A DNA stretch of 56,440 nt, filler included, from Sphacelaria rigidula (GCA_964200075.2; 7 parts of 7 records of this genome joined end to end with filler, not necessarily neighbours in it), one strand, 5' to 3'; shown: positions 7,979 to 48,463, counted from the first letter of the whole stretch. A program made the numbers and translations. The notes: generated from the letters alone by a model not told the origin.

Positions 7979-8078
7979 NNNNNNNNNNNNNNNNNNNNNN
8001 NNNNNNNNNNNNNNNNNNNNNNTTAATTAATTAANNNNNNNNNNNNNNNNNNNNNNNNNNNNNNNNNNNNNNNNNNNN
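7979..8078. other. Artificial scaffold linker (N44-TTAATTAATTAA-N44)
   Basis: A six-frame-stop linker inside an N run, recurring every 8077 nt. Confidence 0.97.
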
Positions 8079-16055: not shown

Positions 16056-16155
16056 NNNNNNNNNNNNNNNNNNNNNNNNNNNNNNNNNNNNNNNNNNNNT
16101 TAATTAATTAANNNNNNNNNNNNNNNNNNNNNNNNNNNNNNNNNNNNNNNNNNNN
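16056..16155. other. Artificial scaffold linker
   Basis: N run containing TTAATTAATTAA. Confidence 0.97.
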
Positions 16156-24132: not shown

Positions 24133-24232
24133 NNNNNNNNNNNNNNNNNNNNNNNNNNNNNNNNNNNNNNNNNNNNTTAATTAATTAANNNNNNNNNNNN
24201 NNNNNNNNNNNNNNNNNNNNNNNNNNNNNNNN
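24133..24232. other. Artificial scaffold linker
   Basis: N run containing TTAATTAATTAA. Confidence 0.97.
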
Positions 24233-32209: not shown

Positions 32210-32309
32210 NNNNNNNNNNNNNNNNNNNNNNNNNNNNNNNNNNNNNNNNNNNNTTAATTAATTAANNNNNNNNNNNNNNNNNNNNNNNNNNNNNNNNNNN
32301 NNNNNNNNN
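32210..32309. other. Artificial scaffold linker
   Basis: N run containing TTAATTAATTAA. Confidence 0.97.
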
Positions 32310-40286: not shown

Positions 40287-40386
40287 NNNNNNNNNNNNNN
40301 NNNNNNNNNNNNNNNNNNNNNNNNNNNNNNTTAATTAATTAANNNNNNNNNNNNNNNNNNNNNNNNNNNNNNNNNNNNNNNNNNNN
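40287..40386. other. Artificial scaffold linker
   Basis: N run containing TTAATTAATTAA. Confidence 0.97.
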
Positions 40387-40699
40387 TTTGACGTTTCTCC
40401 CTTCCAACAGCCGCAGTCCCCCCCCCCCCCCCCCAAGAAAAATAACAATAATAATGTCAGCACCTGCTTCGAGTTCCGCCAGCGCACAGTCGCTGCGCGT
40501 GCTTTTTTGCCTACACCACCACTTGCGCTCCCGCGCTATTTACCACACAGTGCGTTCACTCCCGACTGGAGGAGAACCGTCACCCCACGCACACAACACC
40601 GCACCAAACGCTTCCCCACGCATCTCTTTCATCTCCCCGACAGTTGTAAAAGTCGGCGGTCATCATTCTCGCGAGATTGGGCAGGGTCTACGACCATCG

Positions 40700-43600
40700 T
40701 CATTCGGCTAGGGTGAAGACGTTGCGTTCAGGGGTGCCGGCATGGCAGAAGCTGGGGTGTCGTGTGAGTGTTCGCCTGACGCCGGCCCTCCACGCGGGGG
40801 TTCGGCGAACGCTCGAGTCGCTTTTCCAGTCAAGCCGATCGTGGAAATTTTCCTGCAGGGGGCAAAATGGTGCGGCCACACGCCATGAGTGCCAGGTCAT
40901 TCCCATCTTCATCACGCCCACACACGTGTCGGGATAGATACCGTCTCCCTTCCTCCGCATGGGTTCGGGAACGTTCCTCGAAAGCAGATACCCATCACCT
41001 CGACTGATTATCCACATATAACGGAATATCATCATCCTCCGGGGGGAGGGTCGACCTACAACCCGTCCCGGCTGCCACACTATCAACTATTTTACGGCAC
41101 CCGTTTCACCGTGGCGCATGACCGTCGCTTACCACCATTGATTGCCCCACGCTCAAAAGGGTTGTCAGCGTTGATAGTTCAGAATCAAGCATCAAACCGT
41201 GCGAATACCAAATGACACGGTGGGGGTGGGAAGTAGGATATCGAGAGAGAACTAGCCTGATTTTACGATAGGGTGGGGGTTCACGAGCGTACGCAACCTC
41301 ACACTCCAGTATTGGGACTCTTGTATAGGTGCAGACGATGTCTAGTATTTTGAAAAAAGTAACTTGATACGGATGAAAGAGCGTTCACATGGATACTCAT
41401 TTTATGATGCGGTCGTCCTGACTGCGGGTACCGCGTTGAGCTACGGACGCCTGCAACACGCACCTCGATGTAGGAGTAGACCATGGGAATAGTCCCCTGC
41501 CGGTGGGGAAGCTTGAGTAGAGCTGCACGGATCATATAGACATACTCATCTTCTCCGTCTTCTTCATCTGCCACCATTAACGCCGCGGGTGCATTTCGGA
41601 AGGGAACCGAATTTCGAGTGATGGTCAAATTTCGGGGATACCAAGTGTATTTTTGGAGGATAGTGCTATCGTAAGTCGGTCTTGTTGCAAGGTAAACATT
41701 TTCAACGGTTCGATTCGGAAGGCAACGGAATTACCCAACGACTTTTCTTGAAGAAATCGTTGTCGGGACGCCATCATTCCAACAAAACAAAACAAACATC
41801 CATGTCGACTCTTCGGTTCTCCAACACGACATGACCATGTATTTCGCGTTCGCAGAGCACACTTGACACACGGTGCCTTGATTGAGCACATGAGGTTGGT
41901 GAGTTGCGAAGCTCGCCCGATATACAAGCATAGCTAACAACGAGTGACACATCAACCGCCAAAAGTATGCATACCGTATCCCAGTCTCAAGATCATGATA
42001 TTACTCACACACGAATGCGCGCGCGTAAGCTTGAAATGAACATGAAGCTCACCCATTGCATCTCCAAAATCTTCGTCCCTCGGATCATTCTCGCCTCTAC
42101 TCGCCCCCCTGCTGCCAGCGCCTCCCGCCGCCCTGCTCCCTGTCCCCGCATCCGGCGCCAGAGACTCCTCCCCCGCATCCCCTTCTTCCGCTTCTGGTTT
42201 GGCCTCGCCTGCTTCCTCGTCATAGCCATCGGGCACGAGCACGACATACCGTGCAGGCATGGGTCTAGCGGGCGTTCGCCCGGTGGCATCTTCGTCGTCC
42301 TTAAATTTAATTTCGATGCGTTTTTCCGCTGTGGCGGCCACCTTGGGCACCTGGAGGAGCGAGGCGGATCATGACACACGAGCAAAATAATTAGAGATGT
42401 AATACACCAACGAGGAAATGATAGAACGGGGACACGTTCGGCGCACGACACGCACGACTCAAAAAGAGTGCGACACGTGAAACCACAGCGAGAAGTGACG
42501 AGTGGCGGATGACACAATACGCACGACATTTGGATTACGGAAAAAACATCGGTTTTTGGTGCACAGGGCAACACGCACACAAGTATGACGAGTTAGAAAT
42601 TCATCTTGTCAGCAAGACTTTCGATTGCTAGATCATGACGATAGCACGGGTGTAATTATACCGAAGGGGCAGTCATCGATGGCCTTTCACACTCCAGAAG
42701 ACAACCAAAGAGAGAAACACCGCCTCATCACCATGATTTCTGCCATACAAGGGACACCAATCGGAATCTATATGTATGAAGCCTCACCCTGTGCACGGTG
42801 CCCAGGTAGAAGCTGGTCGTATCCGGGAAAACGGCCAGCACTCGGTCACCCTTTCCAAGCCCCTTGGTTGTATCTTCCAGTCGGATCACCGAAGACCGAG
42901 GAGCTGTTAGCCCGCCCAAGCCTTCCTTGTCATCATCATCCCTCAACTGGAGAATGACCAGAAGCAAGGGACAAACGGACGGGCACGTCACGTCAGTCAG
43001 CAGTCGAGGAAGCACTCGGCAATGCGCGTGGCATCGCGGGTAGCCGGAAGGAAAGAGTATAGCTCCGCTTGAGCAGGCTGGCCTTTTCGAGGGTGAACAA
43101 ACTCGACAGGGCAACCGATCGGCACAAGAGGAACAAACAAAACGCGGAAAAATGAAGTACTGGACCGCCAGCAACACAGATGGGGGCGTACCTCATACTG
43201 GTGCGTCTCTGGGGTGTACTTGATGACTCTTGCCAAGATCCAGTTACCGGGATCGCCTCGGTCATCCTTCACGGCAACCTGCTCCCCGTTCTTGGCTGTC
43301 CATGCGGGAGAATGAAGTAAAAATGACTGTCAGCAAGCACGACTTACTGATCCATGATGTCCCATTCAAAGATACACTCGACAATTCAGCGGTGGCCGCT
43401 GGAGAAACTTCAACAGGGTTAGAGAATGGTGAGGGATAATACGCCCCGGAAACCAACGCGAACATACGCGACACCACCTGTTGTAACAGATAAGCTGGAA
43501 AACGACCCCCATATAACTGCTCAGACTACACAAGAGACATCGAATACCTCGGGCACGATGCAAGGTGCATCGCGCTCAACAAATCATGCGCCCCGAGGAA

Positions 43601-46600
43601 GTATGACGCAAGCATCAACTCCTCCCTTAGCGAGATATTCCTCATCACATGTCCCCCGGAGAGATATCCACACAACACAACGTTTTTAATGCCTTTCCTC
43701 TTCCCTCCTTGCCGTCCTCACCTCGCCAACCTCCACCCCCCTTCCTCTTCTTCCCAGGGGGAGACTTCACCGACGCATCTCCAGCGCCGCCACCACCTGC
43801 TCCCGAACCACCACTACCGCTACCTCCAGCCCCACCGCTTCTGTCCTGCTTCTGCTTTCGAGACTTGCTCTCCTCCCCCCCATCGCCACCACTCCCTCCT
43901 CTGCTTGAGGCAGTCCCTCGATCTGTAATGGCGGCGCCTCCGCCGTGTGTAGGGGCGTTTGTCGCGCTTGACCCACTAGATGATGGACCTCTACTGCTAT
44001 TGCTGCCACTACTGTTGAATCTCGACCTGCCCACTGGTGACTTCTTGCTCGACGCCTACGTAAGGTTGTGTTCGCATGTATGAGATGCACGCGGGGGAGA
44101 GGCGACGGGGGAGGATCGAAAGGTTTGTGGTGCGTAGCACACATATTATCGCCGCCGACGCCTACTGTACTGCCAGCAACAATAATATAGTTCATTTGGG
44201 GATAATGACGAACGCTACATTTGTCCCAGGTGAAATACGCTGAGCCAACGCTGCCACGCCAGCGAGGGCGTGTAGGGCCAGTGCTCTGGTCGGTGGCAGC
44301 GCTATAATTGCGACCCACCGCGCTCGAGGAAAAACAGCGCTTCCAGGCCATCACAAGCAGTGTGATGTATCTCGCTCGAGTGACCCGCCACGACATTGGA
44401 TACGGCGTGAATCAACTGGCGCGGGCGATGTCCAAACCGTCGAAGGCGCATGTGGCAGCTGCAAAACTCTCACTCCGATATTTGGCCGACATTACGGACC
44501 ATGATGCCTGACGCAGGTAAAATACGCTGAGCCAACGCTGCCACGCCAGCGAGGGCGTGGAGGGCCAGTGCTCTGGTCGGTGGCAGCGCTATAGTTGCGA
44601 CCCACCGCGCTCATTACGAGAATCCGGTCGACCGGTGCATGACGCGGGTAAAATACGCTGAGCCAACGCTGCCACGCCAGCGAGGGCGTGGAGGGCTAGT
44701 GCTCTGGTCGGTGGCAGCGCTGTGGTTGCGACCCACCGAGCTCATTACAAGAATCCAGTCGACCGGTACCTGACGCAGATGCCATCTCTCAGCGGGAACT
44801 TTTGGCAGCAATGATGTCGCGCCGCTGACTGGGGTTGAACAAAAATGCGCCAGCTTCCACCCGCCAACACGGCGCCGGGTGCGGTAGCACACACGTCGGC
44901 GGTAACTATACGGACAGCTGAGGACGAGAAGCACTCTAGCAACGCCCGTCAGCGCCGCGTAGTCGGCACCAATACTGTCACGAACAAGCCTGTCAGCTCT
45001 CAGAAATTACGAGCTGGGCCAGCCTAGAGGCGGATTTAAAGTTTGCAGGTCCATGCTCTTCTTCTTACATTCAGAGTTGGACCCTGAAATTTGGTATGGA
45101 CGATGCATAGGGCATGAAAAAAAAATTACAGCGGCACCAAAAGCTTCAAAATATTTTTTCATGAGTTGAAGGCATGTTACTGATACCTGAAAAGTGATTA
45201 TTGCCCTCAACTCAAGAAAAAATAAAAAAAAAACTTTTGGTGCCAATGTAAATTTTTTTCATGCCCTATGCATTGTCCATACCAAATTTCAGGGTCCAAC
45301 TCTAAATATTGGCGGGAGCATGGGTCTAACAAAAACCGGGTCGGTAGAAATTCGGAACAGTATTTCACAGGCCACTCACCGGCCCATGTTTGGTTTTCGT
45401 GTATTGAAATTTGATGTCGGCGCTCTTTAAGGCATAATTAACGAAACAAAGTGGGTCAGGTTAATTTTTTTTGTATCTTCATCACTGGTATAGGGCGTTC
45501 TACCATGGTAACTACTTCTTCACGAGAAAGCCATAACCTCTTTGAAAATAAAAAAATGAAGGTCCATTTTTTTTTCGGCACTCTTTTGTGGTTCTCCACA
45601 CCAAAATTCGTCGCCATCCGCCAAATGCATCGATCGGGAGTTTCATAGAGATTTTAGTATTGGCTTTATCTCCCTTAGGTATAGGAATTACGAGACATGG
45701 GGTTTAATTAACGAGAAAATATGGGCCCAAACTTTCGAGCAGATGGGCACCTTCCCGTTGATAAGATGATTAATACGATATGAGGATCACGGCCCAACTC
45801 GTCTGTGTCGATGAGATATTGCTTTGAGAGCTTAAATCCGTTTTTAGGCTGGCCCAGCTTGTATGAAGTATCTTTTAATATGAGACGTCTTGAGTCGTCA
45901 CCATGACACCCCCGTCCGCCAGGCCGCTAACGGTACCGCTACCGAGGACATACTAGCGTGTCACCAACCCGCGCACTTGGTGCCTGAACCCCCCTCCGTC
46001 CAGGCCAAGAATACCTTCAGGGAACATCGGTCGGTCCGATTGGGACCAACAAGCAGCCTCTTGACCTGGAGTGCACCTCCCTCAAGCTCGGTCTCGGACA
46101 CTTCCAACCCACACAACACAGTTTTCTTGGCCATGTTCATCCGGAACAAAACACAAAATAATGATTCAGTACCGGTCATGTCACAGACCTTCTCGGAATT
46201 CGACATTGATCCTCAACGACGTCTGGCAAAATGCAACACACGCACACACACACACTACCCCCAGACTTCATTTGGAGTTTAAACAAGAACGAGCGGAAGT
46301 ATCTCACCTTCGACGGCATTGTGTCTCCTCCGTGGCTCTCCGTCTCCCACGACGGCGACATCTGAGGCGCAGCCCTGTCTCTACTGTTGCTGGTCCCGTA
46401 ATCATAATCGTGGGGTTCGTACCTACCGTTGCTTCCTCCTCGCCCCCCATCTCCTCTCCTACCCCCCCCGTCACCCATCATCCCCTTAATCATGCCGCCG
46501 CCCCTCCTCGAGTACCCATCCATTCTCCCGCCATCGTCGTAGCCCTGCATCATCCTCGGGTGATCGGGGACGTCAAGTGGCGCTTGGAAATGACCGCCCG

Positions 46601-48062
46601 CGCTTCCAACCAAGTCGCCGCGCGCCTCACCACCTCCCCCGCCGCCGTCGCCGTCTACGGGACTGCTACTCACGCCCGTTACGGGACCCGCATCGCTTGA
46701 GATGACCGTCGGCAGGCCGTGTCTTCCTCGTTCTTTGTCTCCCGAATTGCCGAGGGCCGCGAGTGCGAGATCAATTGCAGGGCGGTAAGGTCGCTCGGGA
46801 TCTACGACTTTCTGGAGGAATGATGTCATCACTCCCTCCTCGTCCACCGAGGGTGCTTCCTGTATTTGGATGGGGGGGGGGGGGGGGGGGGGGGTGTATA
46901 CCCCATGGCACGTTGTTGGGTAAGAGCGGTTTGTGGAGATGACAACAGATACCTGTTTTTTTCTGGACTCGTTTCTTGTTCTTGTTCAATGGCCAAAACC
47001 GCCTGTTGACTGGGACAACAGATATACGCAAGCGAGGTGGTCATGTACAATAGTGGCATATTTTGGCAGGAAAAAACTTCTGTAATATGCCGGCCGCCCC
47101 GGTGGCTCAGTTGGAAACCTCGAAACCTGCTGAGGGTGGGGTGATGGGTTCGAATCTCGATGCAGTCACACGATCTGGGAGTTTTGTTCGCACCATGCCC
47201 AACAGTGGAGAGCGATAATGTCATGGGTACAAAAGGAAAACTGAAAAAAAAACGTGTCTCGGCCTTCCTCCTGTGAAACCCCGGCTGATGCGCGCACATA
47301 TACCGAAAGGCGTAGACTGGCGTCCAGAATAGATGGGATGACAAATCACAAAATATTGTCCACCTTCGCAACCAGGATTCACTTTACACTTTCCCTACAG
47401 TAGTAACCAGAGGTCGTTCAAGCAGACAGCAGCCATCTCTAACTTGCCATCATTTGTGGCCACTACTGCTTCATCGAACGGATTTGGCACATAATACAAT
47501 CGCACTTCCCGCAGTGCCCTACCATAGCGCCATCGCCATGCGGAAAAAAAAGGGGGGCAACGGGGTAGGACAACTGAATAAACTGCGGCTCCTTTTGACC
47601 TGCGGCCGGATGGCTGAAACGTTCCAGAGTGACTGAATCGAGATAGATTTGCTCATACAGTCAATCGTAAAATACTGAGGATAAAAGACAAGTTCACAAC
47701 GGTTGGGAGGCGCGGGGAGACGTGCTACGGGCACACAAACATGTGTCACGTACCCTGTGGGCGAACAAAAACATAAGATGGACGTACAATGACATGATCT
47801 CTGGAGGTGCCAACATGCTTCATTTATCAAGTGCGGGCAGACAAAATCTCCGCAAAAAAACTAAGAATGCCAGTGCACCGTGCTGTGTTGTCATCCGAAT
47901 ACTTTCGACGTTAAAGCTCGAGACAGATCTGCAACACACGATGTACTCCGGATTCAGGATTACCTGGAAGTGACGGGCAGCCGCCACCGCCAGCTCGGAC
48001 TGCGTGCAGTCGGGACGGACATTGATGCCGTGGAGCTTGCAATATCTTTGAAGAGTGCGGTA
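40700..48062 (-). CDS. SGF29: Chromatin protein: SAP30 Sin3-binding domain + SGF29-type tandem Tudor + C-terminal forkhead-like winged helix (at least 600 aa; 5' end possibly missing)
   Basis: Eight GT-AG exons (47964-48062, 46308-46859, 43722-44055, 43192-43295, 42788-42946, 42053-42350, 41464-41567, 40700-40852) total 1803 nt in one open frame. SAP30-like: YRTLQRYCKLHGINVRPDCTQSELAVAAARHFQ|EAPSVDEEGVMTSF. Tudor: GEQVAVK..NWILARVIKY..HQYE|LRDDD..VLAVFPDTTSFY..IKFKDDED..RYVV. Confidence 0.88.
44233..44775. repeat. Three copies of a ~131-bp structured repeat, the first interrupted by a Copia fragment
   Basis: aaatacgctgagccaacgctgccacgccagcgagggcgtg.agggc.agtgctctggtcggtggcagcgct..ttgcgacccaccg.gctc at 44233, 44520 and 44651. 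Confidence 0.9.
44325..44500 (+). mobile_element. Ty1/Copia reverse transcriptase fragment
   Basis: EEKQRFQAITSSVMYLARVTRHDIGYGVNQLARAMSKPSKAHVAAAKLSLRYLA is a clear Copia RT C-terminal motif. Confidence 0.9.
45010..45861. mobile_element. TA-TSD family element (internally deleted, ~850 bp), intronic
   Basis: TA|CGAGCTGGGCCAGCCTAGAGGCGGATTTAA ... TTAAATCCGTTTTTAGGCTGGCCCAGCTTG|TA. Confidence 0.85.
47092..47350 (+). mobile_element. tRNA-derived SINE (intronic)
   Basis: Pol III A box TGGCTCAGTTGG (47103-47114) and B box GGTTCGAATC (47147-47156). The 3' tail is shared with the repeats at 6160 and 10090. Confidence 0.7.
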
Positions 48063-48363
48063 CTGCATTCGAATTCACGTACGTAAAAAGCATAGTGGAG
48101 ACGAGGTAGGGGACACGTTAGAGCTTGCGTCACAAGACATTCGCGAAAGTGCACAAAGGAAGTCTGGAGTGGGTCGCACTTCACAGCCACCGGCTGAGAG
48201 CAACAATTGCACCTTGAAGTCATTTCTTCACAAACTTAGAACGTCCATGTCATATTTGTGATGTTGGATTCATGTTGGGATGAGGGGAGGGGGGGGGGGG
48301 GGGGCTTGGCCGCCCACCGTTATTAGATGGAGTGGGGGATCGTGCCCGCGGCATCCGATCGGA

Positions 48364-48463
48364 NNNNNNNNNNNNNNNNNNNNNNNNNNNNNNNNNNNNN
48401 NNNNNNNTTAATTAATTAANNNNNNNNNNNNNNNNNNNNNNNNNNNNNNNNNNNNNNNNNNNN
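48364..48463. other. Artificial scaffold linker
   Basis: N run containing TTAATTAATTAA. Confidence 0.97.

Follow-up and report, generated by a model that had tools for sequence, protein, structure and literature searches.

In animals and yeast, the SAP30 domain clamps the PAH3 domain of Sin3 within the Sin3L/Rpd3L deacetylase complex. SGF29, the reader of SAGA/ATAC, is to our knowledge otherwise known solely from acetyltransferase complexes, and its N-terminal helical region is presumably needed for entry into the HAT module. In a study of yeast Rpd3L, three helices of Sap30 grip Sin3 PAH3 and the complex reads H3K4me3 via the flexibly tethered PHD domains of Pho23 and Cti6; Pho23/ING1b/2 are described there as the H3K4me3-reading PHD subunits of Rpd3L/Sin3L (PMC10224958). 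A locus from Sphacelaria rigidula brings a SAP30 domain, an SGF29-type tandem Tudor and a forkhead-like winged helix together and, judged from its sequence, is one real nuclear gene with three modules and no merged gene model; its best named homologs place it in a brown alga or a very close relative.

The window, i.e. the whole analysed stretch of 56,440 nt (GCA_964200075.2; seven parts of seven records joined end to end with filler), carries this gene on its minus strand. When the model was rebuilt from coordinates, eight exons running from 48068 or 48062 to 40700 formed a single open frame, with GT...AG borders at all seven introns and phases 0,0,1,0,0,1,0. The spliced frame comprises 1809 nt, corresponding to 602 codons plus TGA, and has no internal stops; the alternative start at 48062, just past an AG at 48064-48063, gives 600 codons. 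The exons, phases and 600-codon frame of the original prediction were thus reproduced. All eight exons can be aligned to independent proteins, at identities of 41-87%.

Exon 1 (47964..48068; ATG at 48066-48068) covers the start of the SAP30 Sin3-binding domain, its first 35 residues, and is 83-86% identical to its counterparts in Undaria and Scytosiphon. The original prediction had named a profile search for SAP30 as a check, and exon 1 alone matches Pfam SAP30_Sin3_bdg well above cut-off (profile 2-35 of 53, E=1e-10, 42.1 bits, cut-off 22.2); the Undaria ortholog P0001 and the Scytosiphon ortholog P0002 score 56.8 and 57.4 bits. Intron 1 (46860..47963, GT..AG, 1104 nt) interrupts the domain, the final ~18 residues of which (46859-46806) open exon 2. 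The Sin3-binding motif had been proposed to be divided at this first junction, and it is genuinely split by the intron, since the domain of the Undaria ortholog (residues 36-88) is continuous across the junction RHFQ/EAPSVDEEGVM (here and below, a slash marks the junction).

The family profile retrieves human SAP30 with Sin3 PAH3 (2ld7, E=1.1e-7) and also yeast Sap30 in Rpd3L structures, the matched SAP30 chains being those of 2ld7, 9v2w and 8ga8, and in the AlphaFold model of the relative P0008 the domain consists of three helices. The family thus shares with yeast Sap30 the PF13867 Sin3-binding domain and three predicted helices, like those of the Sap30-PAH3 contact (PMC10224958). It differs in that the domain stands at the N-terminus of a far longer protein, with a histone reader and a winged helix covalently attached behind it, and in that a SAP30 zinc finger is not detected: zf-SAP30 (PF13866) gave no match at E<=0.01 in 47 scanned proteins, full-length orthologs included, the N-terminus of the window's own protein being incomplete.

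This incompleteness concerns the 5' end. The orthologs have ~34 further conserved N-terminal residues ahead of the window model, which were searched for across the window and not found, and 9 nt before the ATG at 48068 the frame is closed by a TGA (48077-48075); the window must therefore lack one upstream exon or more. Possibly it is hidden by the artificial joint N44-TTAATTAATTAA-N44 at 48364-48463, upstream of exon 1. The missing first exon, the TGA shortly upstream of exon 1 and the repeats in introns might also speak for a pseudogene, i.e. a copy that is decaying or not expressed. However, nothing interrupts the 602-codon frame, its splice sites are canonical and the missing exon coincides with the artificial joint. 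Conservation peaks in the functional domains, with 79-87% identity in Tudor exons 4-5 versus 41-59% in exons 2, 3 and 6, which carry linkers; we regard a pseudogene as extremely improbable.

Downstream of the SAP30 domain, exon 2 (46308..46859) continues with a Gly/Arg/Met-rich linker and ends in a conserved tail (..PQMSPSWETESHGGDTMPSK). It is 51% identical to Undaria and 41% to Scytosiphon; used as a query, it finds P0001 at 99% coverage, with a tblastn alignment across the entire exon (E=1.4e-35). Intron 2 (44056..46307, GT..AG, 2252 nt) is the longest of the gene and contains a 131-bp tandem repeat at 44505-44778 as well as a hairpin at 45068-45308, where matches to MIR8562/MIR530 stay below threshold. 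Exon 3 (43722..44055) lacks Met and encodes a linker rich in Ser and Gly, in which a basic patch is conserved (..PPGKKRKGGGGW); its identity to three brown-alga proteins is 52-59%.

The junction across intron 2 decides between one gene and two. Two neighbouring genes would comprise a SAP30-like one (exons 1-2) and an SGF29-Tudor/winged-helix one (exons 3-8), with the Undaria and Scytosiphon models wrongly merged over a 2.25-kb intron that is the longest and bears repeats. Annotation of Ectocarpus sp. CCAP 1310/34 has such a division, in that P0003 is a 357-aa SGF29 plus winged-helix model whose Met start ('MAKRS') falls exactly at the exon-3 equivalent. There is also a 231-aa model with SAP30 only, P0004; moreover, a phase-0 match by itself would arise by chance in one case out of three. 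Against this, exons 3-5 of the window are free of Met (none occurs between model residues 217 and 448) and a TAG stands directly 5' of exon 3, overlapping the acceptor, so that the Tudors are untranslatable without an upstream coding exon; Undaria and Scytosiphon likewise lack a Met at the start of exon 3. The conserved tail of exon 2, which reaches the donor site, is missing from both P0004 and P0003, and the split models thus lose conserved coding sequence. Furthermore, dozens of compact relatives, as well as transcriptome ORFs, have SAP30 and Tudor domains separated by 30-100 residues, and gene annotation also gives a fused protein for a second brown-alga paralog (Ectocarpus siliculosus P0158, Pylaiella P0011). 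The window product aligns end to end with P0001 (619 aa, 62.5% identity) and P0002 (612 aa, 58%), both of which carry PF13867 and PF07039. Taken with the in-phase junctions, these alignments uphold the proposal of a single protein with SAP30, SGF29 Tudor and winged helix, and two genes are very unlikely. We judge the Ectocarpus sp. split to be a mis-annotation; because of the P0003 start and the SAP30-only P0004, it is nonetheless conceivable that some species have a downstream promoter, separate or alternative.

The tandem Tudor begins with its first Tudor in exon 4 (43192..43295; 79-82% identity to orthologs). Exon 5 (42788..42946; 83-87%, ungapped 85% versus P0001) provides the acidic H3-A1 pocket (YE/LRDDDDK) and the first cage aromatics (VFPDTTSFY), and in exon 6 (42053..42350) the second Tudor ends (IKFKDDED..ARYVV, to ~42231, according to Pfam and ortholog alignments), followed by an acidic/Gly-rich linker. 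Pfam SGF29_Tudor matches exons 4, 5 and 6 collinearly (profile 2-36, 39-98 and 101-131; E=5.7e-5, 1.1e-8 and 0.17), with 35.7 bits for exon 5 against a cut-off of 23.8 and 83.6 bits for P0001. A sequence search of the PDB with single exons gave no SGF29 match, and residues were therefore mapped via the ortholog, which matches PDB SGF29 at E=1.9e-9, and the family profile, which finds human SGF29 at E=1.4e-27 and yeast Sgf29 at E=1.6e-8. Three domains are confidently predicted in the AlphaFold model of P0008, and its best Foldseek matches are crystal structures of SGF29 with H3K4me3.

Human D194 and D196, which we take to be the acids of the H3-A1 pocket, in agreement with the numbering from the 3me9 alignment, correspond to D and D in the family; Y238 is F, Y245 is Y, F264 is F and D266 is D. 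According to the work from which the SGF29 cage residues are taken, a Y238F variant binds like wild type in vitro (PMC4589357). The claim that the SGF29 binding residues are kept is borne out by these alignments: both the acidic pocket for H3-Ala1 and the cage for H3K4me2/3 are retained, which suggests H3K4me binding. The protein differs from SGF29 in being joined to a deacetylase-complex anchor and not to an acetyltransferase module, and in having no SGF29-type N-terminal helical region upstream of the Tudors, where only the SAP30 domain and low-complexity linker are found.

The C-terminal domain is encoded by exon 7 (41464..41567; 56-68% identity to orthologs), with helices 1-2 of a forkhead-like winged helix from ~41547, and exon 8 (40700..40852; 72-78%), with helix 3, the wing (..PAWRAGVRRTLTRHPSF..) and the stop TGA at 40702-40700. 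Their junction, YSYIE/ENFHDRL, resembles YAYIE/EHFHDRL of P0001. A longer in-frame start for the exon 8 region at 41086 was rejected, as it is without ortholog support. On exon 7 alone, Pfam Forkhead (PF00250) reaches E=0.13 and 12.8 bits against a cut-off of 27, and the window's own orthologs also stay below it (P0001 24.0 bits, E=4.4e-5; P0002 20.5; P0003 21.5); more distant members pass (P0007 29.3, P0158 29.4, P0154 28.3 and P0168 28.0 bits). A sequence search of the PDB with the domain found no FOX protein. For the family representative P0122, which is not the window sequence, the winged-helix model has a pLDDT of 90.7, and all 34 Foldseek matches listed are forkhead domains, with query-normalised TM scores of 0.53-0.71 and a best E-value of 3.6e-3 (none at E<=0.001). 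In this predicted structure the C-terminal domain adopts the forkhead fold and topology of FOX domains; the window family differs from them by an insert of 6-7 residues ahead of helix 3 and by a shorter wing 1.

For the DNA-contacting positions we assumed a register relative to the conserved Trp. In FOXC2, the helix-3 contacts are made by Asn118, Arg121, His122 and Ser125 (PMC6468292). In this register, the window has A/R/R/T and the family consensus is S/R/K/F-Y, such that Arg alone is kept of the four and sequence-specific DNA binding is not implied. Of the 'own DNA-binding domain' originally proposed, the forkhead fold stands on the Foldseek matches, but specific binding does not follow.

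As far as sequence comparison reaches, the fusion is real and old and is widespread in ochrophytes. Of 47 distant relatives scanned (HMMER matches), 29 combine SAP30 with SGF29 Tudor, many of them being merely 244-380 aa long, and the family HMMs assign 73 of 189 stored proteins, or 74 of 190 with the window model, to SAP-TUD(-WH). Carriers include brown algae, Chrysoparadoxa, a pelagophyte, raphidophytes, a dictyochophyte and a diatom, and the fusion is also found on MMETSP transcript ORFs of raphidophytes and a dictyochophyte. Oomycetes have SAP30, PHD and forkhead-like domains instead: these proteins (P0167-P0189 and P0058, automatically named 'YNG2/png1/ING family') share the N-terminal SAP30 and C-terminal forkhead-like modules, with 55-63% identity to P0008 along the shared stretch, but have a PHD finger where the window family has the tandem Tudor. 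The survey suggested alongside the original prediction has thus located the fusion in brown algae and a diatom, and a PHD in the Tudor slot in oomycetes. The architecture is not private to the Sphacelaria lineage and is already annotated automatically in public protein databases, as in an Ectocarpus siliculosus 'conserved unknown protein' with PF13867, PF07039 and PF00250; our literature search found no paper describing the SAP30-SGF29 Tudor-forkhead combination. Proteins joining ING-N and SGF29-Tudor also exist.

Most likely, these modules act together in the following manner: The SAP30 module would anchor the protein within the Sin3-HDAC complex of the lineage. It is separated from the Tudors by long linkers, disordered and rich in Gly and Ser, that include a basic NLS-like patch; the Tudors, being flexibly tethered, would dock the complex onto H3K4me2/3-marked promoter nucleosomes. 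The winged helix may supply a DNA or nucleosome contact, non-specific or of altered specificity, and the outcome would be deacetylation of promoters that are, or have recently been, active. The role likely resembles that of ING1b/ING2/Pho23 (and Cti6), tethered H3K4me3 readers that bring Sin3-HDAC to marked promoters (PMC10224958). The window protein is no member of that family: it has a tandem Tudor and not a PHD, and a SAP30 anchor in place of the ING N-terminal coiled coil. Neither an ING N-terminal domain nor a PHD finger was found by Pfam in the window exons or orthologs, and the likeness is functional only.

Could the protein instead be the SGF29 of its lineage, acting in or bridging to SAGA/ATAC, with an added SAP30-like domain through which Sin3-HDAC reaches the same sites? 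Its Tudor is unambiguously of the SGF29 family and has intact pockets. But residues 99-123 of P0008, between SAP30 and Tudor, have pLDDT below 50 and are predicted to be disordered, and low-complexity linkers occupy this stretch in the window; the N-terminal part that holds SGF29 in the HAT module thus appears to be absent. That oomycetes have a PHD in place of the Tudor while keeping SAP30 and winged helix suggests a SAP30 scaffold whose slot takes H3K4me readers generically, and not a link to SAGA. The HAT-HDAC bridge entertained in the original prediction is accordingly quite unlikely.

Likewise, the SAP30-like helices might now serve a different partner or self-association, in a stand-alone chromatin reader or transcription factor without Sin3-HDAC. 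Sin3 binding is predicted from homology, the metazoan SAP30 zinc finger is missing (PF13866 in none of the 47 proteins) and a forkhead-fold domain could make the protein a DNA-bound factor itself. The SAP30 domain, however, matches SAP30 chains solved with Sin3 and is the best-conserved anchor across SAP-TUD-WH, SAP-TUD and SAP-PHD-WH, and three of the four canonical DNA-contact residues are replaced in the winged helix; we consider this explanation unlikely.

An SGF29-type reader wired to a Sin3-HDAC anchor, as originally proposed, is the best reading of the evidence and is strengthened by the oomycete relatives, because these have another type of H3K4me3 reader in the same slot. It is probable, we think, that the gene encodes a Sin3-HDAC targeting subunit in a single polypeptide that would read H3K4me2/3 in an ING2/Pho23-like role, with Sin3, H3K4me and DNA binding and repression all predicted. 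A more tentative and rather doubtful extension is that stramenopiles rebuilt the targeting end of Sin3-HDAC as one polypeptide of SAP30 anchor, H3K4me reader and forkhead-like nucleosome/DNA module, with an interchangeable reader slot that ochrophytes fill with an SGF29 Tudor and oomycetes with a PHD. If true, the SGF29-type Tudor in stramenopile lineages would be mainly a deacetylase-recruiting reader and not a SAGA reader, the 'activating' meaning that SGF29-H3K4me3 coupling has in animals and fungi would, at the same nucleosomes, be reversed or balanced, and the history of the forkhead fold would include a pre-opisthokont phase as a chromatin-complex module outside transcription factors.

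The minus-strand gene at 48068-40700 is very probably a single gene, and its product very probably combines the domains first proposed for it: a Sin3-binding module of SAP30, an SGF29-type tandem Tudor and a winged helix (WH). Rebuilding the exon chain from the raw sequence and stop-to-stop ORFs, followed by splicing by coordinates, yields eight exons and an open frame of 602 codons, which ends with the TGA at 40702-40700; the introns are of the GT..AG type in seven of seven cases, with phases 0,0,1,0,0,1,0. The frame of the original prediction is thereby recovered, its 600 codons corresponding to a start at 48062, directly after the AG at 48064-63. Both the SAP30 and the SGF29 assignment reappear in a Pfam scan of the single exons, all on the minus strand. 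Exon 1 (48068-47964) matches SAP30_Sin3_bdg (E=1e-10) over profile positions 2-35 of 53, the motif being split by intron 1 as first noted. Exons 2 (46859-46308) and 3 (44055-43722) have no Pfam match on their own; exons 4 (43295-43192), 5 (42946-42788) and 6 (42350-42053) match SGF29_Tudor collinearly, at profile positions 2-36, 39-98 and 101-131; exon 7 (41567-41464) gives a weak Forkhead match (E=0.13), and exon 8 (40852-40700) gives none when scanned alone. A longer last exon with an in-frame start (41086-40700, 681 codons) was rejected, as ..YIE is followed immediately by E(N/H)FHDRL in the orthologs. The brown-alga-like sequences P0023 and P0024 share this intron position, between ..YIE and EHFHDRL.., and P0081, from public protein sets, has the same sequence, letter for letter, as the window ORF that ends at 40703; these three and P0075 are products of ORF calling in public sets, fragments in which the last intron is translated rather than spliced out.

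As judged from sequence, exon 1 is an incomplete gene start. The ATG at 48068 is preceded by a TGA 9 nt upstream, and the orthologs carry ~34 further conserved N-terminal residues, including the stretch ..PGPYFPFHRDETYPRTLCVNFK... An upstream exon was not found in the whole window by tblastn with ortholog N-termini of 42 and 40 residues, where the best match reached only 21 bits, or by six-frame motif scans; a weak match, 'NGGRPSPPPPP' at 48321-48289, sits in a homopolymer tract. The window contains artificial joints of the form N44-TTAATTAATTAA-N44, in which TTAATTAATTAA provides stops in all six frames, at an exact spacing of 8077 nt (7979-8078, 16056-16155, 24133-24232, 32210-32309, 40287-40386 and 48364-48463). 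Given this regular spacing, the window consists of seven pieces of ~7977 nt and is not continuous natural sequence. A single 7977-nt piece (40387-48363) contains the entire gene, whose missing first exon may be concealed by the adjoining joint (48364-48463). Long C homopolymer runs are present on the minus strand at 46871-46896, just upstream of the exon 2 acceptor, and at 48290-48311, upstream of exon 1; they may reflect low-quality assembly or polypyrimidine tracts.

Whether the locus holds one gene or two can be addressed with its closest relatives. In a search for longer proteins, exon 2 has a sole match, a 619-aa model from Undaria pinnatifida that carries PF13867 (SAP30_Sin3_bdg) and PF07039 (SGF29_Tudor). 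A search with the Undaria protein gave two further matches: a 612-aa protein from Scytosiphon promiscuus with the same domain pair, and a 357-aa protein from Ectocarpus sp. CCAP 1310/34 (P0003) with SGF29_Tudor only, the 'MAKRS' start of which coincides exactly with the start of window exon 3. Aligned end to end, the window model is 62.5% identical to the Undaria, 58% to the Scytosiphon and 61% to the Ectocarpus sp. protein. All exons are matched, with identities of 83-86% in exon 1, 79-87% in the Tudor exons 4-5, 56-78% in the WH exons and 41-59% in the predominantly linker-coding exons 2, 3 and 6. Residues 217-448 of the window model contain no Met, exons 3, 4 and 5 hold none, and an in-frame TAG overlaps the acceptor immediately before exon 3; where the Ectocarpus model has Met, the residue is A in Undaria and L in Scytosiphon. 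Exon 2 ends in a conserved tail (..PQMS..W.....HG...MP.K), which reaches the donor and which neither P0003 nor P0004, a SAP30-only model, contains. The lack of Met in exons 3-5, the loss of the exon 2 tail and the widespread occurrence of fused relatives together suggest that the split brown-alga annotation (P0004, 231 aa, plus P0003, 357 aa) is probably a mis-annotation, rather than the fusion being the error.

The introns contain several repeat-like elements. A hairpin or inverted repeat in intron 2 (45068-45308, minus strand) scores below threshold for two Rfam families, MIR8562 (83.5 bits, gathering cut-off 211, E=2.6e-14) and MIR530 (47.7 bits versus 85), and has the appearance of a MITE-type foldback, not of a curated miRNA. 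The same intron holds a tandem repeat at 44505-44778 (131-bp unit, 2.1 copies, 92% identity) and a further similar copy near 44240-44330. An overlapping plus-strand ORF at 44308-44511 has no Pfam match but looks retrotransposon-like, similar to the part of copia-type Pol that follows its RT domain. In intron 1, a stretch at ~47085-47160 (plus strand) resembles a tRNA by eye, having boxes like those of the D-arm and T-arm, and may derive from a SINE; neither ARAGORN on the window nor an Rfam E-value scan reported a tRNA there. A scan of ten neighbouring ORFs gave no useful Pfam match, just a sub-threshold S4.

The fusion extends well beyond brown algae. A HMMER search of 1.84 billion representatives, using a profile built from the three brown-alga proteins, gave 672 matches at E<=1e-3; among 47 chosen for a Pfam scan, 29 combine SAP30_Sin3_bdg and SGF29_Tudor. 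Many fused relatives are just 244-380 aa long, with the two domains 30-100 residues apart. Module HMMs for SAP30, Tudor and WH, built from alignment A2 and run on 189 collected proteins and the window model, identify, among the 190, SAP30-Tudor-WH (21, including the window), SAP30-Tudor (52, one with its Tudor match in two pieces), SAP30-WH (28), Tudor-WH (6) and Tudor-only (61, mostly fragments). In a second, name-returning profile search, 19 of the 48 matches at E<=1e-10 carry precomputed PF13867 and PF07039, the named sources being Chrysophaeum taylorii, Chrysoparadoxa australica, Pylaiella littoralis, Ectocarpus siliculosus, Heterosigma akashiwo, Octactis speculum, Chattonella and Thalassiosira profunda. 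Several fused matches are MMETSP transcriptome ORFs, one of them flagged 'type:complete'; being single transcripts, they indicate that the architecture is not a gene-prediction artefact. Brown algae also possess a second, divergent fused paralog (P0011 in P. littoralis and P0158 in E. siliculosus, the latter 519 aa and auto-named 'conserved unknown protein'), which shares 33-36% identity with the window model and has a forkhead domain above the Pfam cut-off. A Tudor tree (77 rows, 130 columns) was computed without short or partial Tudor matches and without Tudor-only and Tudor-WH rows in which the Tudor starts within the first 100 residues. This tree, which is poorly resolved and has no animal, fungal or plant SGF29 root, does not show a single origin of the fusion: unrooted, it requires 4 changes for the SAP30-fused rows, and its starred branches allow 1.

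At the level of the individual modules, the family profile matches human SAP30 from the Sin3A PAH3 complex (2ld7, E=1.1e-7) and yeast Sap30 chains of the Rpd3L cryo-EM entries 9v2w, 9v2v and 8ga8/8hpo. In an AlphaFold2 model of the 380-aa relative P0008 (26-sequence alignment, mean pLDDT 77.7), the SAP30 module comprises three predicted helices, with mean pLDDT values of 87-95 for the blocks in 31-70 and 63-75 for the third helix. The SAP30 zinc finger was not detected in a Pfam scan of 47 relatives. For the Tudor module, phmmer of single exons against the PDB returned chance matches alone for exon 5 and none for exon 6, and residues were mapped through an ortholog and the family profile instead: the Undaria protein alone matches SGF29 (E=1.9e-9), and the profile matches human SGF29 (3me9, E=1.4e-27) and yeast Sgf29 (1.6e-8). 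Foldseek with the P0008 model places SGF29-H3K4me3 and H3K4me2 crystal structures at the top (target-normalised TM 0.60-0.69 for the human entries). With human numbering derived from the 3me9 construct, D194 and D196 fall on Asp residues in window YE/LRDDDDK under either alignment, Y238 and Y245 on F and Y in VFPDTTSFY, and F264 and D266 on F and D in IKFKDDED. PMC4589357 describes Y238, Y245, F264 and D266 as the SGF29 cage, and a Y238F variant as binding H3K4me3 and H3K4me2 like the wild type. With D, D, F, Y, F and D aligned and the one substitution tolerated in that source, the suggested retention of the binding residues holds. The linkers are Gly/Ser/Arg-rich and disordered in the P0008 model (pLDDT <50); immediately N-terminal to the Tudors they carry a conserved basic patch (KKRK in the window) that may be NLS-like.

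The third module is less canonical. In the window's orthologs, Pfam Forkhead remains below its 27-bit cut-off (20.5-24.0 bits), which is passed by more distant members (P0007, 29.3; P0158, 29.4; P0154, 28.3; the oomycete P0168, 28.0 bits). Since whole-protein Foldseek gave Tudor matches alone and none for the WH, a separate model was made of P0122, a 73-aa domain-only representative (29-sequence alignment, pLDDT 90.7). The 34 PDB matches that Foldseek lists for it are without exception forkhead domains, e.g. of FOXA2, FOXM1, FOXN1 and yeast Fkh1, with query-normalised TM of 0.53-0.71 and a best E-value of 3.6e-3, none among the matches listed being <=0.001. The P0122 sequence itself finds no FOX protein in the PDB, the weak chance matches including LIN9 (E=0.021). 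In an alignment that includes the eight P0018 forkhead repeats, the WH family has 6-7 extra residues ahead of helix 3, and its wing 1 is short. P0018 (1153 aa, eight tandem Forkhead domains, Pfam E=3.8e-151) had surfaced through repeats matching the family WH. At the positions of the FOXC2 contacts, the family has S, R, K and F/Y and the window A, R, R and T, in an assumed register after the conserved Trp. In FOXC2, the helix-3 residues contacting DNA are Asn118, Arg121, His122 and Ser125, according to PMC6468292. The WH domain is thus, in the predicted model, a forkhead fold with its canonical base-reading residues largely replaced, so that specific DNA recognition cannot be assumed. Of the DNA-binding domain originally attributed to the protein, the fold stands in the P0122 model, whereas three of the four contact residues do not.

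A survey across lineages retrieves the fusion in brown algae and a diatom, whereas oomycetes carry a PHD finger in the Tudor slot, flanked by SAP30 and forkhead-like modules (P0058, P0167-P0189). This arrangement accounts for 23 of the 48 matches of the name-returning search (Phytophthora, Pythium, Peronospora, Plasmopara and Globisporangium), was checked by domain scan in P0058 and P0168, and is auto-annotated as 'YNG2/png1/ING family'. P0111 has the SAP30/forkhead-like scaffold without a Pfam Tudor or PHD match. A second swap concerns ING proteins: P0087, P0108, P0115, P0116, P0119, P0150 and P0152 join an ING N-terminal domain (PF12998, above cut-off) to an SGF29 tandem Tudor and lack the usual PHD, and P0148 is a weak eighth case. 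All of these but P0150 (7 of 8) form one clade in the unrooted Tudor tree (SH-aLRT 97), weakly nested among the SAP30-fused proteins. In both swaps, the SGF29-type Tudor and the PHD finger can be read as exchangeable H3K4me readers carried by scaffolds that anchor a complex.

Readers of H3K4me3 determine which enzyme works at an active promoter; in model organisms, acetyltransferases are recruited by SGF29 Tudors, and Sin3-HDAC by the PHD fingers of ING/Pho23. The fusion had also been considered as a bridge between HAT and HDAC complexes; nothing like the N-terminal part of SGF29 was found in the protein, which makes such a bridge the less likely reading. Somewhat better than even is the case for a Sin3-HDAC/H3K4me mechanism, in which a long flexible tether would connect the SAP30 anchor to an H3K4me2/3 reader and the WH would add affinity for DNA or the nucleosome. 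As described in PMC10224958, Rpd3L contacts chromatin via flexible modules, including the PHD domains of Pho23 and Cti6, which read H3K4me3 from long tethers, and Pho23 is equated to ING1b/2. By likeness to this flexibly tethered reader, the stramenopile fusion protein would most likely be a Sin3-HDAC targeting subunit that works in the manner of ING2/Pho23.

Automatic domain annotation already reveals the architecture in public databases. No paper on a SAP30-SGF29 Tudor fusion was found in the literature on SAP30 and SGF29 in stramenopiles, brown algae and diatoms, sources represented in part by titles and the first lines of abstracts, and none on a Phytophthora SAP30/Sin3/forkhead/PHD protein among the matches listed. 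The main text of a chromatin-evolution survey (10.1101/2021.11.30.470311) has zero mentions of SGF29, SAP30 or Sin3; its supplements may list such architectures.

The fusion is thus best rated as a putative H3K4me-reading Sin3-HDAC subunit assembled from unexpected parts. It calls for caution in naming every PF07039 protein a 'SAGA-associated factor', and points to a probable split-gene annotation in Ectocarpus sp. as well as to a non-canonical forkhead-fold domain outside opisthokonts. In a major eukaryotic group (brown algae, diatoms, raphidophytes and pelagophytes), an SGF29-type reader would be hard-wired to an HDAC anchor, and the oomycete PHD finger in the same slot would amount to a natural domain-swap experiment, with reader and effector being modular. 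For algae whose chromatin is being mapped, the protein provides a concrete candidate for the reset of promoter acetylation.
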